This document shows, piece after piece, positions 10,489-64,000 of a DNA stretch of 64,000 bases. Below the pieces are notes generated by a model. The model did not search any database, was not told where the DNA came from, and saw nothing but the letters and a program-made list of their open reading frames with translations. The position numbers and the translations under genes are program-made. Where the stretch lies: assembly GCA_034089705.1 (NCBI GenBank), contig JAXDTZ010000014.1, positions 28,819 through 92,818 on the forward strand, read 5' to 3'. Each line of letters starts with the position of its first letter. Position 1 is the stretch's first letter. Source of the DNA: Candidatus Enteromonas sp. Lineage in GTDB: Bacteria > Bacillota_I > Bacilli_A > RFN20 > CAG-826.

Positions 10489-11553
10489 ATGGCAAGCATC
10501 CCAACCAAGAAATTCTTCGAAGCCATTGTTAAAGCAATGGAAGAAAACATCGATTCCGACGCCTTTTTCAACGAAATCCTCTTTCGCCTGGAAGAAAACG
10601 AGCGCGATGAAATCGCGTTAAAAAGCAAAACCGGCCAGAATCCGGGAATTTCCGCGAAAGAAGTCTTGTATCCCCTTCTTGGGAAAACGGAAAGGCAGAT
10701 TCTTAAAACCGCGCTTGGCTTTTCGGGGCTTTCGGAAGTTCAAACCCTCTCTGCCAAAGAACTCGGCAAAGACCCTTATTTTTCATTGCTTTCGAAAGTG
10801 GAGGAGGCCTCCTTGGGATCCATTCGCTTCGGTTGGGAAACCTTGGAGGCGAATCGCTTTTTCCTCGCGGGAGATAAGCGCTCCGCGGACGAAGTTTTTC
10901 ACGAATATTCTCCTCTTGGAATCTTAGATGAACCCCTGGACTATCCGGTTTTGGAAAAAGACGGCGTCCCTTGGATGAGCCTTGTCCCCCACGAACTGTT
11001 GACGATGAAAGAGCCAATCCGCGAAGCGAAGGGGAAGGTCGCGACCTGCGGGCTCGGGCTTGGCTATTTTGCCTTTTCCGCATCCCAAAAAGAAGACGTT
11101 TCGGAAGTCCACGTTTACGAACTGGACCCCGAAATCATCGACTTTTTCCAAACGCGTCTTCTTCCCTTGTTCCCTCATAAAGAAAAGATCGTCATCCATC
11201 AAAAAGACGCCTTCTCTTATGTAGAAGACGGGCCTTACGATTTCGTTTTCGTTGACACCTACCATAACGCGGATGACGGGACGCCCCAATACCTCCGTTA
11301 TTTGGCGTTAGAAAACGGAAAAACTCCCGTTGCTTATTGGATTGAAGGGACGCTTCTTTGCTATTTCCGGAGAGCGGTCATTTATTCCCTCGCTTGTTGG
11401 GGCGAAAGCGAATCGTTCCTGAAAGAAGAGATTCCCCTCATCTATGCCTCTTGGCGTGCCTTAAAAGCGACCGGGATTCCCAAAAACCTCGGGCGTTTCC
11501 TGTCCGATGATGGTCTCAAGGAATTCGCCCAATTAGTAGCGAGCAAAATATAG
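10489..11553 (+). CDS. spermidine synthase-like class I SAM-dependent transferase family protein (function uncertain)
   Basis: 354 aa; GLGLGYFA (GGGDGG-like) motif, VYELDPEIIDF and DFVFVDTYHN blocks resembling the polyamine aminopropyltransferase fold; no obvious RBS. Confidence 0.5.
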   Translation: MASIPTKKFFEAIVKAMEENIDSDAFFNEILFRLEENERDEIALKSKTGQNPGISAKEVLYPLLGKTERQILKTALGFSGLSEVQTLSAKELGKDPYFSLLSKVEEASLGSIRFGWETLEANRFFLAGDKRSADEVFHEYSPLGILDEPLDYPVLEKDGVPWMSLVPHELLTMKEPIREAKGKVATCGLGLGYFAFSASQKEDVSEVHVYELDPEIIDFFQTRLLPLFPHKEKIVIHQKDAFSYVEDGPYDFVFVDTYHNADDGTPQYLRYLALENGKTPVAYWIEGTLLCYFRRAVIYSLACWGESESFLKEEIPLIYASWRALKATGIPKNLGRFLSDDGLKEFAQLVASKI

Positions 11554-29986: not shown

Positions 29987-30799
29987 CTATTTCTTTTTGC
30001 CCTTTGGGGCGAATCGTTCTTTCCAGGCGGAACGCCGGCGTTCCTTTCGATGGATTTTTTCGGCTTGGGCGCTTGCGGTTCTCTCTTCGCCCAGCTTCTT
30101 TTTCTTGGCTAGGAATTCTTCGTGGGCTTCGTCGAGTTCCTTCCGGAGCTTGGTCTCGTAAGGGCCCGCTTCTTTGGGGAGTTCCACGGTGGGAACGTAA
30201 CCCGCGAAGCTGTCGGCGACTTTGGAAATTCCGGATTTCCATTTGTTGGAAATGGATTCTTTGACGTAATCGACGACGAGGTTTTTCACGTCATCCCCCA
30301 AGGTTTTCCGATCTTCTTCTAAGGATAAGCGAAACAGATCGATATAATGGAACACGAAGGATTTGAGCAGTTCGAAGCCGATTTGGACGACGACGAGGAC
30401 CACCATCCCGATAGCGAGGAAGCGCTCGGCGTCATGGACTTCGAGGAAGCAAATGCTCACGAGGGAAATCATCGCGGCGATGAAGCGGAGCCCGATGATG
30501 CAATAGGACAAAAAAGCCCGGACTTGCTCATGGGAATAGCGGCGTTCCAGTTCCCGATTCGATTTCCCCGAAAGGTAAACGGCGAACACCGCGACGGAAA
30601 TGCCGGCGATCAAAGAATAGATGCTGAGGCGAACCCAATGGGCTTGGGTCGCGTGGATGAAAATCGAATAACCGAAAAATAAGAGGGAAACGCAAAAGGA
30701 AATGATTCCGATCGCGAATACGATTTGGGCGATGTTTTTCTGGAGTTTGTCTAGCAAGGCTCGCGTGTAAGTTAGAGGTTCGTTTCCCATCCTTATCAT
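29987..30799 (-). CDS. membrane protein with 4-5 TM segments and a charged K/E/R-rich C-terminal tail
   Basis: 270-aa ORF; hydrophobic helices in first 160 aa, then coiled-coil-like charged tail ending RFAPKGKKK. Confidence 0.55.
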   Translation of the reverse strand: MIRMGNEPLTYTRALLDKLQKNIAQIVFAIGIISFCVSLLFFGYSIFIHATQAHWVRLSIYSLIAGISVAVFAVYLSGKSNRELERRYSHEQVRAFLSYCIIGLRFIAAMISLVSICFLEVHDAERFLAIGMVVLVVVQIGFELLKSFVFHYIDLFRLSLEEDRKTLGDDVKNLVVDYVKESISNKWKSGISKVADSFAGYVPTVELPKEAGPYETKLRKELDEAHEEFLAKKKKLGEERTASAQAEKIHRKERRRSAWKERFAPKGKKK

Positions 30800-30942: not shown

Positions 30943-30948
30943 TATAAT
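30943..30948 (+). promoter_or_regulatory. consensus -10 box (TATAAT) placed 7 nt before the ABC ATPase start codon, implying a leaderless mRNA
   Basis: CCAGGTATAATCTAAACCATG; no Shine-Dalgarno between the -10 and ATG 30956. Confidence 0.45.
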
Positions 30949-30955
30949 CTAAACC

Positions 30956-31957
30956 ATGATTGAAGTAAAACACGTCAAAAAGTATTTCTCGCGCCCTTTT
31001 CGCGAACCGGGGTTGATTGGCGCCGTCAAAAGCCTTTTCACCCGCAAGAAAATCATCACGAAAGCCGTCGATGACGTGTCATTCGCCATCACGGACGGGG
31101 AGATCGTCGGTTACATTGGCTCCAATGGGGCGGGGAAAAGCACCACCATCAAAATGATGACGGGGATCTTAACCCCAAGCGAAGGGGAAATCCTTTACGA
31201 CGGCAAGCGCCCTTATGACCATCATGACCGCCGCTCCTTGCTCAAAGACATCGGCGTCGTTTTCGGGCAGAGAACCCAGCTTTGGTGGGATTTGCCCTTG
31301 CGCGATTCCTTCGATCTTTACCGAGATATCTACGAAATCCCCAAGGACGAATACGAGGCGCGCGTCCAATATCTCAGCGAATTGCTCGGGCTAGAGCCCC
31401 TATGGATGTCCCAGGTCCGGACCATGTCCTTGGGCCAACGGATGCGAGCCGATTTGGCGGCGAGTTTGATCCATCGCCCGAAAGTTTTGTTCTTGGACGA
31501 ACCGACCATCGGCCTCGATGTGCTCGTCAAAGACAAAATCGTCGAAGCCATCCATTCCATCAATCGGGATTTCGGGACCACCGTCATCTTGACCACCCAC
31601 GACATGAAGGACATCCAGAACCTTTGCGAGCGAATCATCATCCTCGATGAAGGGAAAATCCTCTATGACGGGCCGCTTTCCACCATCAAGGAACGCTTTG
31701 GCGACATTCGGAAACTCCGCCTTTTGACCGAAGATGAAATCGATCTTTCCGCCCTCCAAGGGGCTTTCCCTGGAGTGCAGGAAATCAAAAAGAGCGAGGA
31801 CGGGTATTCGGAAATCGCTTATAACGCCTCAAAAGTTTCCCCCGAGGACTTGCTCCAATACCTCATCGGCAAGATTCATTTTACCGACATCAAAATGGAG
31901 GAAACGAGCCTCGCCGATATCGTCAAGCGCATCTACGCGACCAAGGAGATCGGATGA
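30956..31957 (+). CDS. ABC transporter ATP-binding protein (DrrA/ABC-2 type with C-terminal accessory domain)
   Basis: Walker A GSNGAGKST, signature LSLGQRMR, Walker B LFLDEPT; ~90-aa C-terminal extension. Confidence 0.9.
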   Translation: MIEVKHVKKYFSRPFREPGLIGAVKSLFTRKKIITKAVDDVSFAITDGEIVGYIGSNGAGKSTTIKMMTGILTPSEGEILYDGKRPYDHHDRRSLLKDIGVVFGQRTQLWWDLPLRDSFDLYRDIYEIPKDEYEARVQYLSELLGLEPLWMSQVRTMSLGQRMRADLAASLIHRPKVLFLDEPTIGLDVLVKDKIVEAIHSINRDFGTTVILTTHDMKDIQNLCERIIILDEGKILYDGPLSTIKERFGDIRKLRLLTEDEIDLSALQGAFPGVQEIKKSEDGYSEIAYNASKVSPEDLLQYLIGKIHFTDIKMEETSLADIVKRIYATKEIG

Positions 31958-32808
31958 GAAAATACCGCGGATTCATCAAAGCGAGCTTCCTTGAGGTTTT
32001 TGCGTTCCGCTTCGACATTTGGAGTTGGATCGTCCAAGACATTTTGACGGTCATCTGCACGGTTTTCCTTTGGCTCGCGATTTACGCCCAACAAGATTCC
32101 GGGGCGTCGATTTCCGGGTACAAGGAAGCCGAATTGATTGGGTATATGGTCTTCATTTCCCTCAGCCTCACTTGGAGCGGGGCCACCAACACATTCCGAA
32201 ACGTCGGGGACGACATTTACCAAGGCAACATCGCCAACAGTTTGACCAAGCCGATCCATTACCGGAGATGGCAATTCTTCAACGCGATTGGGCAAATGCT
32301 CGCGAACTTCACCCTCTTTTTCCTTCCGATGTTAGTGGCGAGCGCGCTATTTTTGCAGTTGATCTTCGCTTCTAGCGGAGGGCTTGGGGCGATCTTCTCC
32401 TCCTTTTCTTGGTGGAACGTCCCTTTCTACCTCATCGCTGGGCTCCTCGCCCTCGTCATTACCGACAGCCTCGATTTCATCATCGCCCAACTCAGTTTCC
32501 TCACCAAATCGGTTTTCGGATTGATGATCATCAAATCCACCATCTTCGCGTTTTTAAGCGGGGGAATGATTCCTTTTTCCTTCTTCCCCAAAGGCGTTCA
32601 AGAAGCCCTTGCCTATTTGCCGTTTGCCTCTTTGGCTTCCACCCCCGTCAACCTGCTTTTGGGGCGATATAGCCTGACGAGTTCCGTTCCTTTGCAAAAC
32701 GCTTGGTTCGTTTTGGGGCTGAGCGCCTTATACGCGATTGCCCTCTACGCGGCAAGCGAGATGGCGTGCGCGAAAATGATCCGCCACGTCGAAAGCGCGG
32801 GAGGTTAG
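31954..32808 (+). CDS. ABC-2 family transporter permease
   Basis: 284 aa, 6 predicted TM helices; ATGA overlap with the ATPase stop. Confidence 0.8.
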   Translation: MRKYRGFIKASFLEVFAFRFDIWSWIVQDILTVICTVFLWLAIYAQQDSGASISGYKEAELIGYMVFISLSLTWSGATNTFRNVGDDIYQGNIANSLTKPIHYRRWQFFNAIGQMLANFTLFFLPMLVASALFLQLIFASSGGLGAIFSSFSWWNVPFYLIAGLLALVITDSLDFIIAQLSFLTKSVFGLMIIKSTIFAFLSGGMIPFSFFPKGVQEALAYLPFASLASTPVNLLLGRYSLTSSVPLQNAWFVLGLSALYAIALYAASEMACAKMIRHVESAGG

Positions 32809-32809
32809 C

Positions 32810-33664
32810 ATGATCCGGAAATACTTCAAACTCTACCCGCATTACCTCGCGATGGCGGTGAAAAGCAAACTGATTTACCGCCTCGATGCGGCCCTTGGCA
32901 TCATCGGGTTCTTCTTCAGCAACGGGGCGACCTTCCTTTCCCTTTATTTGGCCTTGAGCTCCATCGGCGGGCTCGGGAAATGGAGTTTCATGCACATCAT
33001 TTTCCTCTATGGGTTCTTGATGATTCCGATGGGCATCGACCACATGCTGACCGACCGGCTTTGGAATTACGGAGGCTGGCTCATCCATAATGGCGAACTC
33101 GATCGCATTTTGATGAAGCCGTTGAATCCCCTCTTCCAAATGTGCGCGGAATTCTTCCAAGAAGGGGGCATCGGGGAGATTGTCCTCGGCGTGGCCTTCA
33201 TCGCCATCAGCGCCCCCAACATCTCGGTGACCATCTCCTTCTCGAGCGTCATGGCTTTGATCGTCGGGGGATTTTTCTCGATCTTCATCTATTTCGCCAT
33301 CAAACTTGGGTCAATGAGCGTCGCTTTCTACACCCATCGTTCCATCTCCTTGATGTCGGCGCTTTACAACGTCAAGGATTTCGGGCGTTACCCCGGGAGC
33401 ATCTACCATTCGTCCCCCAAGAAAGTTATCGGCAACGTCTTCTACAATATCTTGCTGTTCCTCTTGCCTTTTGGCTTAGTTGGATATCTGCCGGTATCCT
33501 GCATTTTGTTCCCCGGCGACCCCATTCCCTTCTTGTGGTTCTCCATTCCCCCTTCTTCTTGGCTCGTCGCCGGCATCATCGCCGTGGTGGCGATCGCTCA
33601 CTTCTCCTTTGCCTATTGGTTGTTCCGGCGAGGCATTCGCCGTTATGGCTCCGCCGGGTCGTGA
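32810..33664 (+). CDS. ABC-2 family transporter permease (second subunit)
   Basis: 284 aa, 6 TM; GGGAGG RBS; 1 nt after the previous stop. Confidence 0.8.
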   Translation: MIRKYFKLYPHYLAMAVKSKLIYRLDAALGIIGFFFSNGATFLSLYLALSSIGGLGKWSFMHIIFLYGFLMIPMGIDHMLTDRLWNYGGWLIHNGELDRILMKPLNPLFQMCAEFFQEGGIGEIVLGVAFIAISAPNISVTISFSSVMALIVGGFFSIFIYFAIKLGSMSVAFYTHRSISLMSALYNVKDFGRYPGSIYHSSPKKVIGNVFYNILLFLLPFGLVGYLPVSCILFPGDPIPFLWFSIPPSSWLVAGIIAVVAIAHFSFAYWLFRRGIRRYGSAGS

Positions 33665-33684
33665 TTGTTTTTGGGTTAGTTTCC

Positions 33685-33715
33685 TTGCAAAATTTCAGGG
33701 TTACTATATAGTAAC
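33685..33715 (+). promoter_or_regulatory. sigma-A-like promoter (TTGCAA-16 nt-TATAGT) with a perfect 16-bp palindrome GTTACTATATAGTAAC over the -10 box
   Basis: -35 at 33685..33690, -10 at 33707..33712, palindrome 33700..33715, ~25 nt upstream of the first lipoprotein gene. Confidence 0.5.
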
Positions 33716-33741
33716 TGGGTTTGAAAAGGAAAAGATGTCGT

Positions 33742-35661
33742 ATGAAAAAATATTCTTCTGCCTTATTTGCGTTAGCGGCTTCTGCGTTGCTGCTCGTTTC
33801 TTGTAGCGTCGGGAACTCCGCTTCTTCGCTTGATTCTATTGCCCCGTCGAATTCGGAAACTTCGAAGGAGCCAACCCCCGACTCCTCGAAAGAGACGAGT
33901 TCGGAGGATTCCGAATCGCTGGTTTCTTCCGAAGAAGAGAGCAAAAGCGAAACGGTCACCGAACCGAGCGAAGAGCCCCAGGAATTCACGATTTCCCTCG
34001 TGGGGGATCCTTCTTCCGTAGGCGTCGAGGTGCAAGCCCCTTCTTCCGCGATCGAAGGGTCGACGGTCACTTTGGAAGTCACCGTTAGTGAGGGCCATAT
34101 CCTCGAATACATCCGTCTTTACGCCCCAACTAGCGCCGGTGGCGGGGTGCGCGTGAGCCCGGACGAAAAGGGAGCCTATACGTTTGTGATGCCTTCCCAA
34201 AATCTCACGATTTATTACAAAGGCGTCGTGGGATACACCGTCTCATTTGCCAGTGACCACGCGAGCGCCGTTTTGGCGGAAGATTCCGCGCCTTATGACC
34301 TTTTTGGGGAAGGCTATCCCGTCTACGTCATGAAAAACACCGTGGAAGAAGGGTATTCCTTCACCGGCTTCACCGTGGAAGATGAAAACGGGAATTCCAT
34401 CGAAACTTGGAACGACCGCATCGACCAAGTGGGATTCCTCATGCCCGCGGGCAACGTGACCGTCACTGCCCACGCGGTGGCGGTGGACGCCGTTTTCGTC
34501 GAACTGGCCGAGACCTATTCCAACGGATGGGCCATTGACATGAACGAACCCGCGAGCGGATTCGAACTTCAGATCGACATCGACGGGCGCATCACCCTCA
34601 AGACCGACTGGGCGGATCCCTATTGGACGGGCATCGCGACCTATTCGGGGGGAGTTCTTTCCGCTGACCTTTGCCATTTGACGGGCGATGGGTATTATAC
34701 CGACGCGTTCCGCCATTTCGACGCGACCTTCCATCAGGACCGCGATTACGTGACTGCAAAACTCTCGAGCGGGGAAACCGTTTACAACTACCTCTTCGCC
34801 AGAACGAGCGAAGCGATGGTGGTGAAGAAGATCTTCGCTTCCGATGCCTTGGATGGGGGATACGTCTTGAAGCACCGCATCGCCCTGGTAAGCGCCGCCA
34901 GCGGCGACTTCTTCTGCTATACGACCCCAGACCGCAAGGCCAGCTATTCCTTCTTGCGCGCTTTCGAAGCCTCGAGCGGCGAAGAAGTCCATAACCTCTT
35001 TAAAGGCGGGAACTACGTCTTAAAGGACGCTAGCGGCAACGAAGTCGTCGCGGTGAGCTATGACGGAAGCAAAATCTCCGTTTCGGGGCTCGAAAGGGGG
35101 ACCTACGCGGTCGATGAGTCCACCTCCATCTCCTTGGACGGGTTCGGAAATTACTCCAAAGGCGAAGAAACGGGAACCTACGTGCTCAAAGGCGACCAAT
35201 TGAAGCTCTCAAGCGGGGAAGAATACACGATCGACCGCGAAGCAAAAACGGCCACGCGCGTAGAAAAAACCGCTGCCCATCCTTTTTCAGGCAAAACTTA
35301 CGCGACAAGCGAAACCAATCCCATCAAGATTTTCGAAGAGAGCTATGACGATTACGCACCCAACGATTTCCAATTCCTCATCCAATTCGGACTCGGGGAA
35401 GGGGAGATCGAACAAGTCTCCTTCTTGCGGCTAGGAGACCCCTGGCCCCAAGTGGGCAGCACGAAAACCCTCACGACCAACATTTCCTACACCTATAGCG
35501 AAACCACCGGGCGTTTGACGGCAAGGCTGGGAAACGACACCGCGACGATGGTCTACGACGCGGAGAGCGATTCCTTCCGTTATTCCGGCACGATCTGGTA
35601 TTCCAATCAAGGGGATTACCAGACGAACAACAAAGACCTCACCTTGACCCTTAAGGCATAA
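33742..35661 (+). CDS. lipoprotein (640 aa) with S/E-rich linker and two copies of a recurrent ~85-aa module
   Basis: signal peptide with lipobox LLVSCS; AGGAAA RBS; modules ending TFVMPSQNLTIY and FLMPAGNVTVTAHA. Confidence 0.8.
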   Translation: MKKYSSALFALAASALLLVSCSVGNSASSLDSIAPSNSETSKEPTPDSSKETSSEDSESLVSSEEESKSETVTEPSEEPQEFTISLVGDPSSVGVEVQAPSSAIEGSTVTLEVTVSEGHILEYIRLYAPTSAGGGVRVSPDEKGAYTFVMPSQNLTIYYKGVVGYTVSFASDHASAVLAEDSAPYDLFGEGYPVYVMKNTVEEGYSFTGFTVEDENGNSIETWNDRIDQVGFLMPAGNVTVTAHAVAVDAVFVELAETYSNGWAIDMNEPASGFELQIDIDGRITLKTDWADPYWTGIATYSGGVLSADLCHLTGDGYYTDAFRHFDATFHQDRDYVTAKLSSGETVYNYLFARTSEAMVVKKIFASDALDGGYVLKHRIALVSAASGDFFCYTTPDRKASYSFLRAFEASSGEEVHNLFKGGNYVLKDASGNEVVAVSYDGSKISVSGLERGTYAVDESTSISLDGFGNYSKGEETGTYVLKGDQLKLSSGEEYTIDREAKTATRVEKTAAHPFSGKTYATSETNPIKIFEESYDDYAPNDFQFLIQFGLGEGEIEQVSFLRLGDPWPQVGSTKTLTTNISYTYSETTGRLTARLGNDTATMVYDAESDSFRYSGTIWYSNQGDYQTNNKDLTLTLKA

Positions 35662-35667
35662 CCATTT

Positions 35668-37500
35668 ATGAAAAAACAAGCATTATTTCTCTTATCTCTT
35701 TCCTTTTTGCTCGCTTCTTGCGGGCTAAACGCTTCCAGTTCTTCTTCCGATTCCATCGAGGAATCGCCCGTTTCCAGCGAATCCCTCCCTTCGAGCGAAT
35801 CGGTGGATTCTTCCCTTTCAAGCGATGAGCCGTTTTACCCTTCCATCCCCGGGACTCCCGAGATGGACGATGAAGCGGAGCACGACGCGGGAGGCCTGAG
35901 CGAACTCGACGTCCGCGAGGCGCTTCTCGAAGCTTACGAATCCAAGAAGACCCTGCGTTCCAACGTGGTAAGGAGCCAAGTCTACCTTCGGGGCAACACC
36001 GAAGGGTATGGGGTGGAACTCACCGAAACCCATTACGACTTCTACGAATCCCCGACCTATGGGACCATCATGACCGGTCGGGCCGAATATCGAAAGGGAA
36101 GCGGGGTTTATTCCCCCGTGATCGACCAAGATAGCGGCTACGGGTACCACATCCAAAGCTACGTGGACGGGGGATACCTCCATTACCTCGAAAAGGCCGA
36201 CGAGGGGGTCACTAGCCGCGTCAGTTACGACAACGTTTCGAAGAACAACCGCTACAACAACCTTTACACGATTTATTCGGCGAACCGCGACCTCGCCATC
36301 ATGGAAGACGTGCTCGATGCGATCGACAAGCAATACGGTTCCGCTTCCGAAACCGCAAGGTACATCGACACGATTGGGGATTCGATCATCTTCAAAATCA
36401 CGACTCACGAATACTCGCCCTACACCTACTACAATTACGACGATTTCTTCTATGTCCACCTCGACAAAACGACGAAAAAAGTCACCCGGGTGGATAGCGG
36501 ATTCCTCGTCTACGACCTCGGCGGGGATTTGAAAAACGAAGAGGCGATCCAAGCCATGCGAATCGATTCCGTTTCCCAATTCGATTACGAGAAACGGCCC
36601 GAGTTCCAAGGGACGCTCTACAACGAAAACGACGTGGAGAAGGTCTATGGACTCGCTCCCCAGCACAAAGTGGACTACTCCTCTTGGGAAGATGGGGTCT
36701 TGAGCACCGATCGTAGCGTCGAGATTCTCCAAAACCTCCAAACCTTCGCCGAAGGCACGACTTCTTCTACGGCGACCTTCCATTACGGCGGTTTCGTCGA
36801 TCCCCAATCCCAAGCCGACGAAGACAGCGGGGAATACGCCATCTTAGGCGAAGCTAGCGGCACCGCCACGACCACCCTCTACGAAGGGGATTTCGCCGAA
36901 ATCCAAGGACAGATCTCGCTCGTCAACAAAGAGGGAACCAAGGAAATCTCGATGGTTTCCCAAACAATCGCCGACGACGAAGGGATGCGCATCGCGACGG
37001 CGTATTCGGATGTGTTAAAGAGCCATAAACACGTTTTCAAAGCCAGCGAAGTCTCCGACACCGACCCGTATTTGGGCATCTCTCCCATCTATCGTCCGGA
37101 AGTCTTCCATCCTTTTGAAATCGCCGCCGGATGCGGGCTCAATTGCGACAAGAATTCCCCGATCAACGACGACAGCAACACCTACACTTCCGCGGGGGCC
37201 TTGAGCAAATCCGGGAATGTGATCACGGGCAAACTCACCAAGGTGTACCACAAGAACGTCTGGACGCCTTATTGGACTTACAGCGCTTCCTTTACCATCG
37301 AAGATGGCTTCTTGAGTTCCATCACTTTGGACGTTTCTACCTACCGCGAAAGCGATACCGCGCATTACGAATTCGATTCTTCCTTTGCCTTCGCGATGAA
37401 AAAAGGCGAGCCGGTTCTCCCCTTCTCTGGGGACATCCTTGATGTTTCTTCGTTAAAAGAAGGATCGGTCATGGCCAAGAACGAATGGATTTACATGTAA
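35668..37500 (+). CDS. lipoprotein (610 aa), unknown function
   Basis: MKKQALFLLSLSFLLASCG lipobox followed by S/E/D-rich low-complexity linker; 6 nt after the previous gene. Confidence 0.8.
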   Translation: MKKQALFLLSLSFLLASCGLNASSSSSDSIEESPVSSESLPSSESVDSSLSSDEPFYPSIPGTPEMDDEAEHDAGGLSELDVREALLEAYESKKTLRSNVVRSQVYLRGNTEGYGVELTETHYDFYESPTYGTIMTGRAEYRKGSGVYSPVIDQDSGYGYHIQSYVDGGYLHYLEKADEGVTSRVSYDNVSKNNRYNNLYTIYSANRDLAIMEDVLDAIDKQYGSASETARYIDTIGDSIIFKITTHEYSPYTYYNYDDFFYVHLDKTTKKVTRVDSGFLVYDLGGDLKNEEAIQAMRIDSVSQFDYEKRPEFQGTLYNENDVEKVYGLAPQHKVDYSSWEDGVLSTDRSVEILQNLQTFAEGTTSSTATFHYGGFVDPQSQADEDSGEYAILGEASGTATTTLYEGDFAEIQGQISLVNKEGTKEISMVSQTIADDEGMRIATAYSDVLKSHKHVFKASEVSDTDPYLGISPIYRPEVFHPFEIAAGCGLNCDKNSPINDDSNTYTSAGALSKSGNVITGKLTKVYHKNVWTPYWTYSASFTIEDGFLSSITLDVSTYRESDTAHYEFDSSFAFAMKKGEPVLPFSGDILDVSSLKEGSVMAKNEWIYM

Positions 37501-37515
37501 ACGAGGTTTTCCGAC

Positions 37516-39042
37516 ATGAAAAAACGCATTTTGTTCCTTTCTTCTCTCCTCTCCCTCGCTTCTTGCAGCGCGGGGGGAATTTCTTCGAGCAAACCCCAAG
37601 AAAGCGGCCTTTCTACCTTCGATAGCGCCCTTTCCAGCGAATCGGCGGAAGAATCTTTGAAAGAAGAAACTTCTTCCCTTTCCGAGAAAGAGCAATTCCT
37701 TTCTTATTTGACTTCCTTGAATGAAACCCATCGCTACACCGCTCGCCTTTCCTATTCCGTCCTTTCGGAAGACGGGGAAGAGCACATGTTCCCGTATGGG
37801 ATTCAAGAGCAATACGGCGATCAGGCCCTTCTTTGGTTGGACGAAGAGAGGGCCATCAATTCCGGGGTCCTCATCAACGGGGAACAAGGGGTGTTCGATT
37901 TCTCGATCGTAAACGGCGAGTTGGTCTTAGGGAACTTCTCTTTCTTCGATGCCGGAGAGCCCATGGGAGAGCTCTACAGCACCCCCATCGACTTCGCCAA
38001 CCCCCGTTATTGGGTGGAAGACGAGGAAGGCGGATTCCACAGCAATTCCCGCCAAGTTTCTAGCGCCCTGGCTTCCTTAAGCGGCCTTCAGGACTTGGAG
38101 AACTACTATGGCGTCGAATTCAGCGCCGGGACAGCGTTCGCCTCCCTTTCCGACAACGGATTCTCCGTGCGGATGGATGCCTTGCTCGAAGGCGAAGTGG
38201 CCGCAAGAGGCTATATTGAGGTCGTGGATATCGGCGAAACGAGCAACCAAATCGTGGAGGATTATTTGAAGAATCCCCGCGTCGTTACCGCGAGAACGCA
38301 GTGGAGCGACGACGATCTGACCACCATCTCCCACTACTTTGCGGGCGATCTTCCCTTTCCCGAAGGGGCGAGCTACACCTTGTCGGTGAATTCGCTCGAC
38401 GATTACCTCGAAGTCATCATCGCCGATTGCGCTTCCGGGGACCTATCCGCCTCTTATAAAGCGCAGCTCGAAGCTCTCGGATACCACGTCGAATTTAAAT
38501 CCGAACATAGCCAATACGTCGCGGAGAAGGAAACCGTCGGGGAGAAGGAAATCGCCACCGACCTCGTGATTTTCTCCTATTTTTCCCAAAGCGAGATCGA
38601 ACAAGCCTATGGCAAAGAAACCGCGGAATTCTATCCTTATGGGCGCTTCCAAATCGAAGCCTACACCGACACCGTGGAAATCCACACCTACGAAGAAGGA
38701 ATCGCCGCGTTAGCAAAATACAGCCAATTCCCCACGCCGAGTTTTTCTGACGTGAGCCACACGGTCATCAATGACCTCACCGAATCCTTCGGGGCGTATC
38801 TGAGCGCCTACGTCACCGTTTCCTTCTATTGCGAGAACCAAACCGTCGCCACCGCCAACCTCAACGCTTACGCCGAGGTTTTGAAGGAAGCCGGTTTTAC
38901 GCTCGATGCCGATTCCACCGAAACCCACATCGCCTTGACGAGCAGCACCGGAGAAAAGGCGAAATACGTCGACCTCAACTTGGCATTGACGGAAGATAAT
39001 TCTTACCTTGGATATTTTGAGGTCACGTATATCGCGGAGTAA
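37516..39042 (+). CDS. lipoprotein (508 aa), unknown function
   Basis: MKKRILFLSSLLSLASCS lipobox, S/E-rich linker. Confidence 0.8.
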   Translation: MKKRILFLSSLLSLASCSAGGISSSKPQESGLSTFDSALSSESAEESLKEETSSLSEKEQFLSYLTSLNETHRYTARLSYSVLSEDGEEHMFPYGIQEQYGDQALLWLDEERAINSGVLINGEQGVFDFSIVNGELVLGNFSFFDAGEPMGELYSTPIDFANPRYWVEDEEGGFHSNSRQVSSALASLSGLQDLENYYGVEFSAGTAFASLSDNGFSVRMDALLEGEVAARGYIEVVDIGETSNQIVEDYLKNPRVVTARTQWSDDDLTTISHYFAGDLPFPEGASYTLSVNSLDDYLEVIIADCASGDLSASYKAQLEALGYHVEFKSEHSQYVAEKETVGEKEIATDLVIFSYFSQSEIEQAYGKETAEFYPYGRFQIEAYTDTVEIHTYEEGIAALAKYSQFPTPSFSDVSHTVINDLTESFGAYLSAYVTVSFYCENQTVATANLNAYAEVLKEAGFTLDADSTETHIALTSSTGEKAKYVDLNLALTEDNSYLGYFEVTYIAE

Positions 39043-39044
39043 CC

Positions 39045-40826
39045 ATGAAAAAGAAAACATTCGCTATTTGCAGCATTTCCTTCCTTCTTCCGCTTGCTTC
39101 TTGTGGCCCTGCCGCTAGTGAAATCTCTTCTTCCAGCAAGTCAGAGATCCCTTTTGTCATGCCCCAGGGCTTGTTTCTCCGTTTGGAGATTGGGGAAGCC
39201 AAGGCCGTGGATTTGGCCGAAACGATTCAAGGGGATTTCACCCTGGCAAGCGAATCGCCCAACATCCTTCTTTCCGGGACCAAAGTCATCGGAATGGATT
39301 ACGGACCTTTCGAGGTGAAAGTCTTGCACAACGATGAACAGCACCGGATTTCCGGAGAAGTCATCACCAAGCAATCCAAGGAAATGGAAATCTACCTTAG
39401 CGATCTGCAATCGACTTACGTCGCGTTCGATTCCTTTTCCGGGGTCACCTTAAGCGGGGACGATTATTATGCCTTCATGATCGGGCAAGACGAGAATTCG
39501 GGAGCCTATCTTTATTCCGGCGGAATCCAGGATCCTTCTTCTTCCCTCTATATTCCTTTTTATCTGGGGTCCACCCCACTCCAGGAACTCGGGGAGGAAA
39601 TGGTTTTCTCCAAGGCCAGTTATTACGCGGGCTATGAACGGAGCAAAGAGAGCCTCTCCATGGAAGGATGGACTTTGTCGTTCTATGAACTCGAGGAACA
39701 GCATGACGGGAGCGGGGATTCCACCGGGGAATTCGTCTACCTTCCCGAAGACCCTTCCCTCGTTTATTCCCTTTACCGTTCGTTGCTTGGGTCAGAAAAC
39801 CCCTTGCCCAACTTGATTTTTTCTTATGGGGGCGCTGCTGGCCTCAGCTTGAAGCTCACCCCTTCCTCCTTGCGGATTTTGCCAATAGACCAAAAGAAAA
39901 ACCCGATTTCTTCCGTTTCGGTCTCGGGGTATAGCATCCCCACCGAAATCCATCTTTGGGGGAGCGATCTCATGATTCCCGCTTTCGAGGAGTGGCGGAA
40001 CAAACCCACGATTCCCCCGCAATTCCCACGAAACGAATTGCCGGAATATTTCCAATCCCTCCAAAAGGCGGATTCCTTTACTTACACCATCGATGCGAGC
40101 TGGCAAAACCCCGAAACGGGGGCCAAGACGGCTTCCCCATCCACTTTCGTATTCTCCGACACGGGGACGACCATGTTCAGTTCCTTTGCCCTAAAAGGGG
40201 TTTATCAGGGTTCGGCATTAGAAAAAACCGTGGTGGAAATCGAAGAAAAAGCCACCTCTTTGTCGGGGCATCTCCCCAAGAAAAGGGATCGAACCTTGGA
40301 ACGCATTTCCTCTTCCGCCGTTGGGAAAAGCTTTCAGACGTGGAAGGGCGAAGAAACCGAAGAAGGGTTCCTTTACGGGAACCGGAGCTCGGTTCCTTCC
40401 CGTTATTCCGATTTCTTTTCCGCGAACATCCTCCCCGGGGCACTAGCCGCCTCTTCGTTATGGGACCAAGCCTCGATCGTGGCCAAAACAAGCGAAGAAG
40501 ACGGAACCATTCGCTTCGTTTACACCCCGAATGGGTCCGACTTCTCTTCCTATTCCTACAACTCTTTCCTCGGGGGAATCCCTTACGCCTTCCATGGCAT
40601 GGATTACGGGGATCTGAGTTTATGCGGATTGCTTTATCTCTATTATTTGGAATTCGCCTGGACGAGTTGCGCGTTTGAACTTGCGGTGAACCCCCTCTCC
40701 CAAGAGTTCTCTTTCTTAGTCGAATTCCAGTATTCTTCCGAGCTCGTTTACCGTTATTCCTTGTCCATTTTCGGCATCAATTCTTCTTCCTTATCCCCCG
40801 AAGCCCTCCAGGCGATCGAGGGGTAA
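39045..40826 (+). CDS. lipoprotein (593 aa), unknown function
   Basis: MKKKTFAICSISFLLPLASCG lipobox; 2 nt after the previous stop. Confidence 0.75.
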   Translation: MKKKTFAICSISFLLPLASCGPAASEISSSSKSEIPFVMPQGLFLRLEIGEAKAVDLAETIQGDFTLASESPNILLSGTKVIGMDYGPFEVKVLHNDEQHRISGEVITKQSKEMEIYLSDLQSTYVAFDSFSGVTLSGDDYYAFMIGQDENSGAYLYSGGIQDPSSSLYIPFYLGSTPLQELGEEMVFSKASYYAGYERSKESLSMEGWTLSFYELEEQHDGSGDSTGEFVYLPEDPSLVYSLYRSLLGSENPLPNLIFSYGGAAGLSLKLTPSSLRILPIDQKKNPISSVSVSGYSIPTEIHLWGSDLMIPAFEEWRNKPTIPPQFPRNELPEYFQSLQKADSFTYTIDASWQNPETGAKTASPSTFVFSDTGTTMFSSFALKGVYQGSALEKTVVEIEEKATSLSGHLPKKRDRTLERISSSAVGKSFQTWKGEETEEGFLYGNRSSVPSRYSDFFSANILPGALAASSLWDQASIVAKTSEEDGTIRFVYTPNGSDFSSYSYNSFLGGIPYAFHGMDYGDLSLCGLLYLYYLEFAWTSCAFELAVNPLSQEFSFLVEFQYSSELVYRYSLSIFGINSSSLSPEALQAIEG

Positions 40827-41139
40827 AAAGGCCGAAATCCAATTTGTCGACCGATACCTGAAAGCGCTTTCAAAAGTACGTGTTATTTTTTGGCGTTTAT
40901 TCTGTCAATGAAAAACGGAAATTTCTTCAATCATCCTGACGAATAACCAAAATTTATTTGAAACCGCGCATTATTCAACGTTTTTAAATTTGAAGGGAAG
41001 TTCGTCAATTCTAACTTGATAAATTAGAAAGAGCGAAAAATGTCAGTCAAAACCGTTTTTCACGCAGGTACGCGTAAAAAAACCCTTGACCGATTTCAAA
41101 CGGCTTTTATTGTAAATTTGTTACTCTCAGGAGGATTCC
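40827..41139 (+). promoter_or_regulatory. 313-bp AT-rich intergenic spacer; probable internal promoter/regulatory region for the giant lipoprotein genes
   Basis: GC far below flanks; TTGACC (41086..41091)-16 nt-TATTGT candidate; AGGAGG RBS 7 nt before ATG 41140; small palindrome GAAAGCGCTTTC near 40858. Confidence 0.4.
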
Positions 41140-48288: not shown

Positions 48289-48323
48289 AAAGCCGAGTCC
48301 TTCGAGGCTCGGCTTTTTCTTTT
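48289..48323 (+). terminator. rho-independent terminator after the giant lipoprotein pair
   Basis: AAGCCGAGUC-CUUCGA-GGCUCGGCUU 10-bp stem followed by UUUUUCUUUUCUU. Confidence 0.75.
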
Positions 48324-48451
48324 CTTCGATATTTGCTTCCTTATTTTCCATTGACGTGAATTTTTCAAAACGATATTCCATATTTCTCGCGCGCGTGTAT
48401 GATATTTTTCGTGCGCCCGTTTTGAGCGCTTGTCCATAATCGAGGTCACTT

Positions 48452-54067: not shown

Positions 54068-54415
54068 TCAATCGAGTTGCTCGATCGCCCGTTCGGTTCT
54101 TTGGAATTCTTCGACCAATGCCCGATAGGCATCTTGGTAACCTACTAAAACCCGAGGACGGAGGATTTCGGTGAGCTCGATCGCTTTTTTCGAGAGTTCG
54201 TCCAGGTGGAGGTTGAGCGACACGCCTTTTAGGGTATGCGCGGCGCGGAAGGCGGTTTCGGGGTCGCTTTCGGCAATGCCTTTGGCGAGGTTTTTCATCG
54301 ATTCGTCCTTCTGGAGCATCTTTAAGAGGCGGGCGATCACCGCGTCGCTGCGGACGGCGGAGAAAATCGCGTTGTAGTCTCCGTGGAGTTCTTCGTAAAC
54401 TTGTTTCGGCGTCAT
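54068..54415 (-). CDS. stand-alone histidine phosphotransfer (Hpt) domain protein
   Basis: 115 aa; four-helix Hpt with AAHTLKGVSLNL phospho-His motif; ATGA overlap with the upstream response regulator. Confidence 0.8.
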   Translation of the reverse strand: MTPKQVYEELHGDYNAIFSAVRSDAVIARLLKMLQKDESMKNLAKGIAESDPETAFRAAHTLKGVSLNLHLDELSKKAIELTEILRPRVLVGYQDAYRALVEEFQRTERAIEQLD

Positions 54416-56808
54416 GCTTCTTCTCCTTCGTCGATGATGTGGAAGGTCCCTTTGCTTTCCTTGGCGAGGTAGAGGGCGGAGTCGGCTTTTTCGAATAGCT
54501 CGGCGACTCTTCCTCTCCCACGGACGGCTCCCGCGGAGGCCTTCAAGGCGAGCCCTTGGACGGACTCGGCGCGGATATGGGACAAGATGGATTCGAGTTT
54601 GGTTTCTAGGACGCGTCGCGGCATGTCCTCGAATAAGAGGAGGAATTCATCCCCGCCATACCGGATGATCTCGTCTTCCGCGCGAACGCAGGAGCGGATC
54701 GCGTCCACGACTTTTTTGAGGGCTTCGTCCCCGGCTTCGTGGCCGTAAGTGTCGTTGATTCTTTTGAAGTCGTCCATGTCGAGGATGGCAAGGCAATAAT
54801 TTCCGATCCGGTCCTTGGCTTTTTCGTCGTAAAACCGGCGGGTTTTGCATCCTAGCGTAGAATCGCGGTATAAGGCATAGGAAAGCGCGGCGACCGAATA
54901 GAGGCCTTCGTCTTCCTTAGAGAAGGAAGCGACGGAATCTTCGTCGATCCGCGAAATCATTTCCAGGGTGTAGGGCGCATTGAGGATCGTCAAAGGACGG
55001 GAAACCACGAAATAGAGTTCCCGGGCGTGGAGACGGAAGGCGCGGGTGGTTTTCTTGGGAATGAGCACGGGCTTGCCTTTGATGGCTTGATCATCCCAGA
55101 AGGGGGTGAAATCCATCGTGGCGAGGAATTTCCCTTCTTCGAGGCGGTACTCCTTCTTGAGTTCGTAGGAAATCAAACGGACCAAATCGAAGTTCTGTTG
55201 TTCCGCGTGGAGAAGGCTTTCGGCCTGCTCGAGGCTCAGATTCTCTTCGTCGAGAAGAGTTGGGGAATCGATGCGGGAAGAACGGGAAGAGAGTTCGTCG
55301 AAAGCGTGGACGATTTCGGAAGCGTCGGCGATTCTGCCGATGGCGAGGTAGGCCGAGCGGCGTTCGGAGAAAATGGCTTCCCCGATGACGTGGAACCATT
55401 TTTCCCCATGGGAGAAATGCAAGAGGAGATCAAATTCGAAGGAGGGCTCTTCCGGGGTCGTTTGCTGAATCGCTTTTTCCACGGTTCGGGCGGCTTCTTG
55501 GTTGCGGGAACCGAAAACCGAAGAGACCGAGAAGGGGTCGTTGATGGTCAAGGGGAAGCCGAACTTCTTTTGGGAAGCGCGGTTGAAGGTGATGGTTTGG
55601 TGGTCTCCGAGTTCGAACCGGAACCACGCTTCGTCGGTGAGGTTCGCGAATCGGTCGCGGAGTTGGCGTTCTTGCAAAAGCAAGGAGGCATCCCGTTCGT
55701 CGCTTACGGAAGCATCCGAAGACCAAGCGGAAGCGTCTTCCTCTCCGGAAGCGTCGAGTTGAGCGATGATTTCGGGAATCTTGTCCTGAATGGCTTCGAA
55801 GCATTGGAGCAAGAAGGGGGAGAATGCCCCGCATTCCCCGTTTTTGATCATGGCGATGGCTTCTTCGTGAGAGAAGGCGCGCTTATAGCAACGGACGCTG
55901 GTGAGGGCGTCGTATACATCGGCGAGGCCCACGATTTGGGCCCAAACGGGAATGGCGTCGCCTTTCAGGCCGTCGGGATATCCCCTTCCGTCGTAGCGTT
56001 CGTGGTGATGGAGGCAGATATCGTGGGCGAAACGGACCAATTTCTCGTTTTGGAAGGCCCCGAGGCTTTCGAGGAGCTCCGCGCCTTTGCGGGAATGGGT
56101 CTTTATGATTTCGAATTCCTCTTGGGTCAGACGGCCCGGCTTATTGAGGATCTCTTCGGGGATGGAAATCTTCCCGATGTCGTGGAGGGAAGAAGCCATC
56201 TTGATCAAGGGGATGTCCCCACGAGAAAAGGGATATGCTTGGGTGGATTGGAGGACTTGCTCGCAAAGGAGCTCGGTCAAAGCGTTGATGTGCAAGACGT
56301 GGAGCCCGCTTTCGGCGTTGCGGAATTCGACGATGTGGGAAAGGATCGCGATCATGAGTTCGTTGTCCTTTTTCCTCGCGGCGAGTTGGGCGTTCACTTC
56401 CTCCATGAGAGCTTTTTGCTTGGCGAAGAGGAGAATGGTGTTTTGGATGCGGCGGAGAACGATTTCGCGTTCATAGGTGGAACGGGGGATGTAATCCACC
56501 GCCCCGAGGTCATAGGCCCGTTTCATGGTTTCGCTGCCGGTTTCGGCGGAAATCATGATGACGGGGGTTTCTTCGATATAGCCTCTCTCCCTCATGAGGC
56601 GCAGGACTTCTAGGCCGTCGCATCTTGGCATGATGATGTCGAGCAAGATGACCGAGATTTCCTCTTTGTGGGCTTCGTAGACTTCCAGGGCCTCTTGGCC
56701 GTCTTTCGCCTCAAGCACCCCAAAACCGCCTTCGAGCATGGTCGAAAGAATGACGCGATTGATTTCTTCGTCGTCTACGATTAACACGGTTTTTCGATTG
56801 CTGGCCAT
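54412..56808 (-). CDS. response regulator with REC, HD-GYP phosphodiesterase and GGDEF diguanylate cyclase domains
   Basis: 798 aa; REC (VLIVDDEEINR…LLDIIMPRCDG), HD-GYP (HDIGKI…HHERYDGRGYPDGL), intervening sensor-like region, GGDEF (RYGGDEFLLLF). Confidence 0.85.
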   Translation of the reverse strand: MASNRKTVLIVDDEEINRVILSTMLEGGFGVLEAKDGQEALEVYEAHKEEISVILLDIIMPRCDGLEVLRLMRERGYIEETPVIMISAETGSETMKRAYDLGAVDYIPRSTYEREIVLRRIQNTILLFAKQKALMEEVNAQLAARKKDNELMIAILSHIVEFRNAESGLHVLHINALTELLCEQVLQSTQAYPFSRGDIPLIKMASSLHDIGKISIPEEILNKPGRLTQEEFEIIKTHSRKGAELLESLGAFQNEKLVRFAHDICLHHHERYDGRGYPDGLKGDAIPVWAQIVGLADVYDALTSVRCYKRAFSHEEAIAMIKNGECGAFSPFLLQCFEAIQDKIPEIIAQLDASGEEDASAWSSDASVSDERDASLLLQERQLRDRFANLTDEAWFRFELGDHQTITFNRASQKKFGFPLTINDPFSVSSVFGSRNQEAARTVEKAIQQTTPEEPSFEFDLLLHFSHGEKWFHVIGEAIFSERRSAYLAIGRIADASEIVHAFDELSSRSSRIDSPTLLDEENLSLEQAESLLHAEQQNFDLVRLISYELKKEYRLEEGKFLATMDFTPFWDDQAIKGKPVLIPKKTTRAFRLHARELYFVVSRPLTILNAPYTLEMISRIDEDSVASFSKEDEGLYSVAALSYALYRDSTLGCKTRRFYDEKAKDRIGNYCLAILDMDDFKRINDTYGHEAGDEALKKVVDAIRSCVRAEDEIIRYGGDEFLLLFEDMPRRVLETKLESILSHIRAESVQGLALKASAGAVRGRGRVAELFEKADSALYLAKESKGTFHIIDEGEEA

Positions 56809-56897
56809 TGTCTTCCCCTAACCTTTGCTAATGATACAACAATTCATGGGAAAACCCCAATTTTCGGTGTCATATCCCTCGCAGTCTCCCGAAAGTG

Positions 56898-56906
56898 TGC
56901 TATATT
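56898..56906 (+). promoter_or_regulatory. extended -10 promoter element (TGcTATATT) upstream of rubredoxin
   Basis: TGCTATATT 33 nt upstream of ATG 56939; AAAGGAA RBS 7 nt before the ATG. Confidence 0.4.
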
Positions 56907-56938
56907 TACTTTGTGGCAATGCCAGAAAGGAATCGACC

Positions 56939-57097
56939 ATGAAATACGTTTGCCCGATGTGCGGTTGGGAATACGACGAGGAAGCCGGGGCTCCGGAATA
57001 CGGAATCGCCCCCGGAACCAAGTTCGAAGACCTTCCCGAAGACTTCTCCTGTCCCCTTTGCGGGGCGCCGAAAGATTCGTTCGGAGCCGCCGAATAA
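56939..57097 (+). CDS. rub: rubredoxin
   Basis: 52 aa [14 protein letters not shown]…[11 protein letters not shown] with two CxxCG knuckles. Confidence 0.9.
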
Positions 57098-57103
57098 GGA
57101 AAC

Positions 57104-57128
57104 GGACCCCGGAAGGGGTCCTTTTCTT
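57104..57128. terminator. bidirectional rho-independent terminator between rubredoxin (+) and tcdA (-)
   Basis: GGACCCC-GGAA-GGGGUCC followed by UUUUCUU; A-rich on the opposite side. Confidence 0.8.
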
Positions 57129-57143
57129 ATGTTCGATTCATTA

Positions 57144-57845
57144 CTATTTCATTAATTTTTGAATGGCGTACGTGGCCAGCAAGATGCCCGCGGAAGCCGG
57201 GGCGAAGGGATTGGAAGCCGGGGTGCGGGGGTTATTGTCCACGGGATGGACCGGGGTGAGGGGCGGTTCTTCGGAATAAACGACCGGATAGAAAGGGAGG
57301 TTCCTTTCCTTGGAGAGTTTCCGCATCACCTTGGCGAGGGGATCCCCTTTCGTGGAATAGATGTCCCCCACCACAAAACGTTCGGGATGCTCTTTGTTCC
57401 CGGCCCCCATGCAGGAAATGATGGGGACGCGGTGTTCCAAACAGGTTTGGATGAGCAACAATTTGCTGGATACCGAATCGATCGCGTCGAGGACGAAATC
57501 GAAGGAAGAGAAATCGAATTCCCCGATGGTGTCTTCCGAAAAGAAGAGGGAATAAGGATGGACGATCGTTTCGGGGAAGATATCTAGGACTCTTTGACGG
57601 GCCACTTCGGCTTTCTTGCAAGACAAGGTCTTCCGCGTAGCGAGGATTTGGCGGTTTAAGTTGCTTGGCTCGAAAGAGTCAGCGTCCACCAAGGTCAATT
57701 CCCCGATTCCAGCGCGGGCGAGGATTTCCAGGGCATATCCCCCGACTCCCCCTAGGCCGAAAAGGGCCACGTGGGCGGAACTCAGTTTCTGCAACGCCTC
57801 TTCCCCGTACAAAGCGAGGGTTCTTTCCTTCCCTAGCGATTCCAT
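57144..57845 (-). CDS. tcdA: ThiF/MoeB-family tRNA threonylcarbamoyladenosine dehydratase (TcdA/CsdL-like)
   Basis: GLGGVGGYALEILARAGIG Rossmann motif; start at M24 (ATG 57845) with GGAGG RBS; first codons overlap the end of the upstream gene. Confidence 0.78.
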   Translation of the reverse strand: MESLGKERTLALYGEEALQKLSSAHVALFGLGGVGGYALEILARAGIGELTLVDADSFEPSNLNRQILATRKTLSCKKAEVARQRVLDIFPETIVHPYSLFFSEDTIGEFDFSSFDFVLDAIDSVSSKLLLIQTCLEHRVPIISCMGAGNKEHPERFVVGDIYSTKGDPLAKVMRKLSKERNLPFYPVVYSEEPPLTPVHPVDNNPRTPASNPFAPASAGILLATYAIQKLMK

Positions 57846-60673: not shown

Positions 60674-60705
60674 AGCACAAGAAAAATCCAACGATAAAAG
60701 TATAC

Positions 60706-61862: not shown

Positions 61863-62792
61863 CTAGTTGCTTAAGCGATATGTACCAAATTTGAAAACTT
61901 TATCTTCCACATTCGTTTGGCTTTCGCCATGATGGTACAGTCCATCGATGACTATTGCCCCATCCGTTAATTCAAAATTGCCTCGTAGATAAAAAACTGG
62001 CGGGTAATCGCTAGAAAACGTCATATCGTATTTGTCGCGGTCTTCGCGCCTTATGTGCTCATAGGGGTCATGGTCAATATAAAGATATATTGTCTTTTTA
62101 TCAGCGGAAGTCCAGTAGACTCCTTCCACCACTTCATCTCCGTTTTTATATTGAAATAAAGCGTGAATATAGGGTTTCGGTATGACGCATGTCATAGATA
62201 CATTTTCATCTAATGAATATGTTCCTTCCGGGATCTGATATTGTTTTGCGTATTTGTAATTATCTTGATCCCGTTTATGTTCTTTGCCTTCTAGAACATA
62301 GGTTCCCAGTTTATAGGGGAGCTCGCTGATTCTATATACATGCGTATAGATTCTCCCATCATTCATGCCTTCGTATCTTTCTTCTTTGATGGTCGTAAAT
62401 TGGGTGAAATCGGTCTCGAAATCATCTACATAGGTATAAAGCCAGTCTTTCTTTTCCGCGCCGTCTCTAGATAAAACAAAATTGACCGTAAAAGTATTTG
62501 CGCCATCATTTGGGTCATAAACGACTCGATAATGGCCTTCATATTTATCTTGACCATCTTCCACATATTTAAATGACATGGCGTCTTTGCTTCCGTCAAA
62601 TTCAAAGAAAGTATCCGATTGATCTTTCAATATCCATTTGCCGGTTGATGAATCAAGCTCTTCATCGTATTCGATGGTGCTATCGCTTTGATTTGCAGTT
62701 CCGTTAAATAAGCCGCATGCGGTTAATGAAAAGCTAGTCAAAAGGCAAAAAGCAGAAGAGAGAATAGTTACTACCTTATTACGCACAATCAA
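61863..62792 (-). CDS. lipoprotein (309 aa) encoded in a low-GC segment
   Basis: signal peptide with lipobox SLTACG; AT-rich codon usage unlike the rest of the window; no linker or module shared with the main lipoprotein array. Confidence 0.7.
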   Translation of the reverse strand: MIVRNKVVTILSSAFCLLTSFSLTACGLFNGTANQSDSTIEYDEELDSSTGKWILKDQSDTFFEFDGSKDAMSFKYVEDGQDKYEGHYRVVYDPNDGANTFTVNFVLSRDGAEKKDWLYTYVDDFETDFTQFTTIKEERYEGMNDGRIYTHVYRISELPYKLGTYVLEGKEHKRDQDNYKYAKQYQIPEGTYSLDENVSMTCVIPKPYIHALFQYKNGDEVVEGVYWTSADKKTIYLYIDHDPYEHIRREDRDKYDMTFSSDYPPVFYLRGNFELTDGAIVIDGLYHHGESQTNVEDKVFKFGTYRLSN

Positions 62793-63520: not shown

Positions 63521-63561
63521 TATTTACAACCTCCCGATAGCCATTTTATTTACCCAGTGTT

Positions 63562-63894: not shown

Positions 63895-64000
63895 CGGTTT
63901 ATTGTTTTTTGAAAAAATTAATCATTGCTCTTTAATGCTGCATATTCCTCTTCCAAACTTAAAACAAAGGACTCATTAGGGTAAAGATGTAAATCAAAAT

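Follow-up and report, generated by a model that had tools for sequence, protein, structure and literature searches.

The stretch of DNA analysed here, which we call the window, is 64,000 nt long, and its proteins carry the NCBI name Candidatus Enteromonas sp. (Bacilli, RFN20), an uncultured organism represented by a metagenome-assembled genome (MAG). The genus Candidatus Enteromonas corresponds to UBA733 in GTDB (order RFN20, family CAG-826), and its genomes are approximately 1.2 Mb in size (PMC8035907). On the plus strand of the window, an ABC-2 exporter operon (30956–33664) is followed by an array of nine consecutive lipoprotein genes (33742 to 53880), all nine with a lipobox. The operon consists of an ATPase gene (30956–31957) and two permease genes (31954–32808 and 32810–33664), with Pfam matches to ABC_tran and ABC2_membrane_6; it is context here and lies outside the element under study. 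Its stop codon (TGA, 33662–33664) is separated by 77 nt from the ATG of lipoprotein gene 1 at 33742, and the product of that gene has the N-terminus MKKYSSALFALAASALLLVSC, which contains the lipobox. The first four lipoprotein genes on this strand (33742–35661, 35668–37500, 37516–39042, and 39045–40826, each with a lipobox) are 2–15 nt apart and are then followed by a 313-nt gap; together (33742–40826) they form the unit that is likely regulated by the element described below.

Features of the 77-nt gap can be compared with those of a sister species, in which the gene order is equal, the permease is 82% identical, and the lipoprotein is 66% identical. A consensus scan found a terminator-like hairpin (33642–33675, plus strand) which covers the permease stop codon and is followed by TGTTTTTGGG. 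RNA folding pairs GUUAUGGCUC with GGGUCGUGAU, and the presumed function is that of a terminator. The hairpin contains G-U pairs and is weaker than its sister-species counterpart, a clearer GGCCGG...CCGGCC hairpin and T-run straight after the permease stop. Ahead of the lipoprotein ATG lies a purine-rich ribosome-binding region, AAGGAAAAG (33726–33734, plus strand), with GAGGG at the matching place in the sister species.

Some observations on the rest of the window are recorded here for their own sake. The gene of the ABC ATPase seems to lack a leader (30943–30958): its ATG, at 30956, comes just 7 nt after TATAAT (30943–30948), and there is no ribosome-binding site, while the sister species has TATAAT, 8 nt, and then ATG. 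The ORF at 10489–11553 is not a called gene; the minus strand carries the true gene there, PNPase. A cluster (54068–60691) converges on the end of the lipoprotein array and encodes Hpt, response regulator, rubredoxin, ThiF-like, and GGDEF-EAL proteins, of which the response regulator has HD-type (PF01966 HD, PF13487 HD_5) and GGDEF domains; this is a cyclic-di-GMP signalling cluster without a DNA-binding output domain. Positions 62001–64000 have a GC content of 0.37, compared with 0.50–0.58 elsewhere in the window, and may be foreign or mobile DNA; the minus-strand ORFs 63092–63520 and 63562–63894 gave no Pfam match. The sign of the GC skew tracks gene orientation: it is positive in the minus-strand regions (1–30.8 kb and 54–62 kb) and turns negative where the lipoprotein array occupies the plus strand. 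The coding strand is therefore C-rich throughout, opposite to the usual Bacilli pattern.

Short palindromes also occur within the lipoprotein array. Just past lipoprotein gene 4 is a perfect 14-bp palindrome, TGAAAGCGCTTTCA (40859–40872), identical in the sister species (L004–L007), where it stands ahead of a clear terminator hairpin. It fits TGWAANCGNTNWCA, the consensus of the catabolite-responsive element, and may serve the lipoprotein units as a site of CcpA type. A 12-bp palindrome, TTTACATGTAAA (37490–37501), takes in the stop codon that ends lipoprotein gene 2, with gene 3 starting 15 nt further on, and the core of the palindrome, TTACATGTAA, is kept in the sister species; this conservation may be incidental because the sequence is coding.

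Promoter of the lipoprotein genes

A sequence-only reading had proposed a near-consensus promoter in the 77-nt gap, and direct reading agrees: TTGCAA (33685–33690, plus strand) and TATAGT (33707–33712, plus strand) are separated by 16 nt. The pair scores 9/12 against the consensus and has the properties of a sigma-70/sigma-A promoter, i.e., hexamers 16–18 nt apart and a −10 box whose second base is A and whose sixth is T. Standard sigma-70 geometry would place the transcription start 6–8 nt past the −10 box, at 33718–33720 on the plus strand. Matches of this quality are not enriched, with eight observed and 9.9 expected in shuffles (18 kb).

The sister species, which belongs with the window to what we call clade A, has TTGAAT-16-TATAGT, with the position and spacing of both hexamers kept and the −35 inside a CCTTG block that is invariant between the window and the sister contigs. 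Further clades were defined from orthologues of lipoprotein 1. Clade B (L137 and L138) has lipoproteins that are 46–49% identical to that of the window and 79% identical to each other, and clade C (L140) has one that is 49% identical. A promoter lies at an equal distance from the ATG in both of these clades: the −10 hexamer is invariant across clades A and B (TTGTCT-18-TATAGT in L138, merely a poor −35 in L137), and clade C has TTGACG-16-TAAGGT, at the window's distance from the ATG.

The ABC operon is absent upstream of the lipoprotein array in clades B and C. The gene upstream in clade B is not an ABC permease but a divergent orthologue (37% identity) of the window gene at 29987–30799, and clade C has the same divergent arrangement. 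An independent sigma-A-type promoter for the lipoprotein genes, apart from the ABC operon, is a well-supported prediction, because its position and spacing recur in three clades, it comes after a terminator, and it is present even where the upstream operon is missing. As for the operon itself, clade A is alone in having it between the gene at 29987–30799, which encodes a 270-aa membrane protein, and the lipoprotein array; in clades B and C (L137, L138, and L140) that gene and the array adjoin each other directly and are divergent. It follows that either clade A gained the ABC-2 operon by insertion or the other two clades lost it.

The promoter probably drives the first four lipoprotein genes only (33742–40826). 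A second lipoprotein unit has its own conserved promoter-like sequence, TTGACC-16-TATTGT (41086–41113), in the 313-nt gap, and a third has a promoter-like site at about 48350–48400, after a terminator at about 48290–48320. The suggestion that the lipoprotein array can be switched independently of the exporter is thus borne out regarding the separate promoter, with support from the sister species and clades B and C, but it needs to be narrowed from the whole array to what are probably genes 1–4.

A conserved palindrome over the −10 box

The −10 box forms part of the right half of a perfect 16-bp palindrome, GTTACTATATAGTAAC (GTTAC-TATATA-GTAAC, 33700–33715), which is its own reverse complement and therefore has no strand. 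The overlap with the −10 at 33707–33712 had been noticed from the sequence alone, and we confirmed it by direct reading. Relative to the predicted transcript start, this putative operator would span approximately −19 to −4.

A palindrome of this kind is unremarkable as such, because 81 of 100 simulated sequences contain at least one. The window has three perfect 16-bp palindromes, whereas simulating it with a first-order Markov model gives approximately 1.7. For the intergenic DNA (2.9 kb) the expected number is approximately 0.047, and for the 77-nt gap it is approximately 0.001. Neither the promoter match nor the palindrome is significant alone, and it is conservation that constitutes the evidence.

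All 16 palindrome bases are identical in the six sister-species contigs that were aligned to the window's gap (6/6), whereas the rest of the gap has only 25–28 identical bases in 70–71 aligned intergenic positions (approximately 37%). It is on this difference that the case for more than chance rests. The conservation also exceeds what a promoter needs: the −10 hexamer accounts for six of the 16 conserved bases, leaving ten beyond it, and clade C has its promoter but no palindrome. Since clade C loses the palindrome and keeps the promoter, the arms must be dispensable for promoter activity and serve something else.

In clade B the arms are kept (TTACTATA and TATAGTAA) but arranged as TTACTATA-T-TATAGTAA, giving the full site TTACTATAtTATAGTAA, with cTTACTATAtTATAGTAAt 25–27 nt before the ATG. 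Compared with clade A, the site has 3 additional bp at its centre (9 nt vs 6 nt, or 8-1-8 vs 8-0-8), and half-site spacing is consequently not constant among the orthologous sites. Because clade B keeps the arms without an ABC operon upstream, the element belongs to the lipoprotein genes. The exact site is carried by effectively two independent lineages only. Permease relatives at 64% identity or less provide no footprint because their downstream regions are not syntenic, and a scan of genome contigs with the permease added two distant loci, also non-syntenic.

Different palindromes occur near related lipoprotein genes. L139, an AT-rich relative whose lipoprotein is 40% identical, has another perfect palindrome: ATTACAATTGTAAT stands 30 nt ahead of the ATG. 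L140 has a perfect 16-bp palindrome centred on TATA, CCTTGATATATCAAGG (468–483), in a long intergenic region upstream of a gene for an 1184-aa lipoprotein.

The window and the related loci define no regulon for the palindrome. The 64-kb window contains no second copy of the 16-mer at up to three mismatches, a looser search (up to five mismatches plus spaced-arm patterns) gave nothing convincing, and the window's genes have no extra half-sites (7 nt or longer) near them. Across approximately 337 kb of related loci, each locus has only its orthologous copy.

How the palindrome may act

The site GTTAC-N6-GTAAC has two-fold symmetry and covers part of the spacer, the −10 box and what follows as far as about −4. 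Its most likely binding partner is a dimeric helix-turn-helix protein whose gene lies in another part of the approximately 1.2-Mb genome. When bound, such a protein would keep RNA polymerase off the −10, and its release would switch the four-gene lipoprotein operon on. We consider it probable that the palindrome is the operator of a dimeric repressor acting on the independent lipoprotein promoter, a reading which is favoured because a symmetric site at about −19 to −4 is the standard layout for excluding RNA polymerase. The sequence-only reading had described this layout as that of a repressor operator: the extra, conserved, symmetric element over the −10 stands, and from its position and symmetry we infer the rest, i.e., that a protein binds it and that the effect is repression rather than activation.

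The longer centre in clade B is awkward for this proposal, as one rigid dimer should not accept both lengths. Three readings are possible: the regulator may differ by clade, the bases that are recognised may differ from the arms, or the element may be a hairpin with a variable loop. The last of these would make the palindrome a structural element in RNA or single-stranded DNA (a 5′ stem-loop, a read-through attenuator, or a cruciform), and arms that are kept around a centre which differs between the clades (6 nt in A, 9 nt in B) do resemble a stem of that kind; the fold itself has a 7-bp stem and a 4-nt loop. However, it is a weak stem rich in AU, with just −8.1 kcal/mol for the fold of the whole 56-nt region; no T-run follows, and a terminator separates the palindrome from the upstream operon. 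The conserved −35 and −10 would start the transcript downstream of the palindrome, which would therefore not be in the RNA. Rfam covariance models gave no match over 33400–34000 at E-values up to 1, so we rejected a known RNA family, and we consider a structural role in general to be very unlikely.

The symmetric flanks could instead be parts of the promoter, arising either from spacer or discriminator preferences or from two back-to-back −10 boxes for divergent transcription, with no dedicated regulator. TATAGT can indeed be read on either strand of the palindrome, divergent genes flank the region in clade B (where a symmetric −10 could serve both), and promoter-quality matches alone are at chance level. 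This explanation seems unlikely to us, however, as clade C keeps its promoter in place without the symmetry and there is no palindrome upstream of the window's divergent gene. Its bidirectional form we rejected, because the symmetry is dispensable in clade C and a minus-strand start in clade A would serve no gene: the upstream gene there is co-directional, and such a start would merely make antisense RNA to the permease gene. The geometry also fits poorly, since the mirrored hexamers are offset by 4 bp and would give starts approximately 23 bp apart, while symmetric bidirectional promoters have starts roughly 18 bp apart. If a protein does bind, it might be an activator, a dual-function factor, or a nucleoid-type factor instead of a repressor, and help in recruiting polymerase is conceivable at a −35 that is imperfect in the window (TTGCAA) and the sister species (TTGAAT) and very weak in L137. 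Activators usually bind at or upstream of the −35, or in a 19–20-nt spacer (MerR-type), whereas this site is centred at approximately −11.5, over the −10, which is a standard position for repression, and the spacer here is 16 nt; we find a non-repressor quite improbable. A recombinase site, a mobile-element end, or an invertible-promoter switch (i.e., lipoprotein phase variation of the mycoplasma type) might be suspected at a lipoprotein array in a Tenericutes-like lineage, the more so as gene content at the junction varies by clade (ABC operon present or absent). But a spacerless palindrome cannot itself invert anything, and the window contains no second copy, no half-site, no inverted repeats flanking the promoter, and no recombinase gene or domain. 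The six sister contigs all have the site in one orientation. The invertible promoter was rejected on these grounds, and the wider group of recombination-based readings is barely credible.

If the palindrome is indeed a repressor's operator, it suggests conditional expression of surface lipoproteins, and the conserved site can be used as a DNA bait or search motif for the regulator and its regulon. To our knowledge, nothing is known about gene regulation in RFN20 or Enteromonas, which are uncultured gut bacteria with small genomes. A palindrome that occludes a −10 is a textbook mechanism, so the finding adds an instance and not a principle.

Candidate regulators and known systems

The statement that no regulator gene is nearby holds: among the window ORFs tested with Pfam, and in the precomputed annotation, there is no DNA-binding domain. 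We also found no ArsR homologue in the 64-kb window (of a genome of approximately 1.2 Mb) or in 337 kb of related loci. Metagenome contigs were scanned for the exact 16-mer, yielding at least 120 stretches with at least 103 distinct sequence contexts; these matches were selected by exact identity, and their tallies give no measure of enrichment over chance. At least 71 of the contexts (of at least 103) lie outside open frames of 100 aa or more. Among the matches listed, there is no Enteromonas-like locus and most are from unrelated organisms. A scan of viral sequences gave 13 matches.

Two groups of genes adjoin the 16-mer among the listed metagenome matches. On at least 16 contigs, a gene for a protein with a winged helix and a nucleotidyltransferase domain starts directly downstream of it. 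On at least three others (L025, L059, and L085, from unrelated bacteria), an ArsR-family gene starts 0–34 nt after it. In L025 (842–857), the 16-mer overlaps the −10 of TTGACA-17-TATATA, and in L085 (1007–1022) it fills the spacer of TTGACA-18-TATTAT. The L085 ArsR protein has an AHSA1/SRPBCC domain (Pfam), and that of L059 (16-mer at 483–498) has a C-terminal extension which ends at the contig edge. Weak similarity links the two groups of proteins (E = 2e-5). Two of the three ArsR genes look leaderless, and the gene divergent from ArsR in L085 is an FAD-dependent oxidoreductase.

The first group is worth a description of its own. Its members (on L019, L022, L035, L036, L050, L068, L073, L081, L091, L093, L105, L115, L116, L122, L123, and L127) are approximately 196 aa long and combine a winged helix with a minimal nucleotidyltransferase (GS...DxD motif), and their contigs are AT-rich and archaeal-looking. 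Each gene is preceded by TTTATATA, then by TATAGTAAC-N5-GTTACTATATAGTAAC-N5-GTTAy, and then by the ATG. This resembles an HTH-MNT protein that regulates its own gene through an operator with three centres.

For the second group, we picked six plasmid-borne homologues of the L085 protein (ArsR/SRPBCC) by protein similarity alone, without using the motif. Five of the six have 16-bp 5-6-5 inverted repeats in the promoter region: GTGAC-TAAATG-GTCAC in Arthrobacter, GACAC-CAATTA-GTGTC (twice) in Metabacillus, GATAC-CATAAG-GTATC in Phaeobacter, and GCAAG-N6-CTTGC in both Deinococcus and Paraburkholderia. The sixth, from Ralstonia, has the last of these with one arm mismatch. Because GTTAC-TATATA-GTAAC shares the 5-6-5 build, an ArsR-like winged-helix protein is a reasonable lead. 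Palindromes of 5-6-5 build are used by many protein families, and we name an ArsR-like protein as the regulator only tentatively and by association. Literature searches were of little help: one with the palindrome sequence returned nothing but a banana paper, and one for ArsR with SRPBCC and an operator returned nothing useful.

A fuller version of this idea is that an unlinked ArsR-like sensor controls the four-gene lipoprotein operon through the site, and that related winged-helix domains, both bacterial ones and those on archaea-like contigs, use the same 16-mer as their operator. This is speculative, and we would put it forward as doubtful. If true, a reduced-genome, Tenericutes-like gut bacterium would switch its surface coat in response to a small-molecule, metal, or stress signal, and not by DNA rearrangements of the mycoplasma type.

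Several known binding sites can be set aside. Fur/PerR/Zur 7-1-7 boxes, NrdR boxes, LexA variants, cre, PrfA/CRP sites, HutC-type GntR sites, parS, and dif are, in their standard forms, out of register with the palindrome. The phase-variable lipoprotein promoters of Mycoplasma, which work by invertible promoters and repeat-length switches, offer a biological parallel, as they too are dedicated promoters over a surface-lipoprotein array in a wall-less-type Bacilli lineage. They differ in mechanism: the flanking inverted repeats, spacer homopolymer or tandem repeat, and recombinase of such systems have no counterpart in the window.

The cop box of the CopY/CopR-BlaI-MecI group was defined as TACANNTGTA and later refined to RNYKACANNTGTMRNY (PMC7253601). 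Like the window's site, it is an AT-rich 16-bp palindrome with TAC...GTA arms over a Gram-positive promoter, and it is bound by a winged-helix dimer. Unlike the cop box, which has TAC-N4-GTA, the window's site has TAC-N6-GTA (TACT...AGTA around a 4-nt centre), and it fails the consensus (KACANNTGTM within RNYKACANNTGTMRNY) because the ACA/TGT core is missing (PMC7253601). The window contains no CopY/BlaI or BlaR1-type gene. The L139 palindrome ATTACAATTGTAAT, in contrast, does contain the cop-box core.

Exact identity is seen with the approximately 196-aa winged-helix and nucleotidyltransferase family, which has GTTACTATATAGTAAC itself directly upstream of the gene on at least 16 contigs. Those sites differ from the window's in lying downstream of a TTTATATA box and in having extra half-sites at a 5-nt spacing, and the family is absent from the window and occurs in unrelated, apparently archaeal organisms. 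Autoregulated ArsR/SmtB operators (SRPBCC/AHSA1-linked) usually adjoin the regulator gene, whereas the window's site adjoins none and precedes lipoprotein genes. In build and placement they are nonetheless like it, with a 16-bp 5-6-5 inverted repeat on or between the −35 and −10, and the identical 16-mer is found on at least three metagenomic ArsR promoters.
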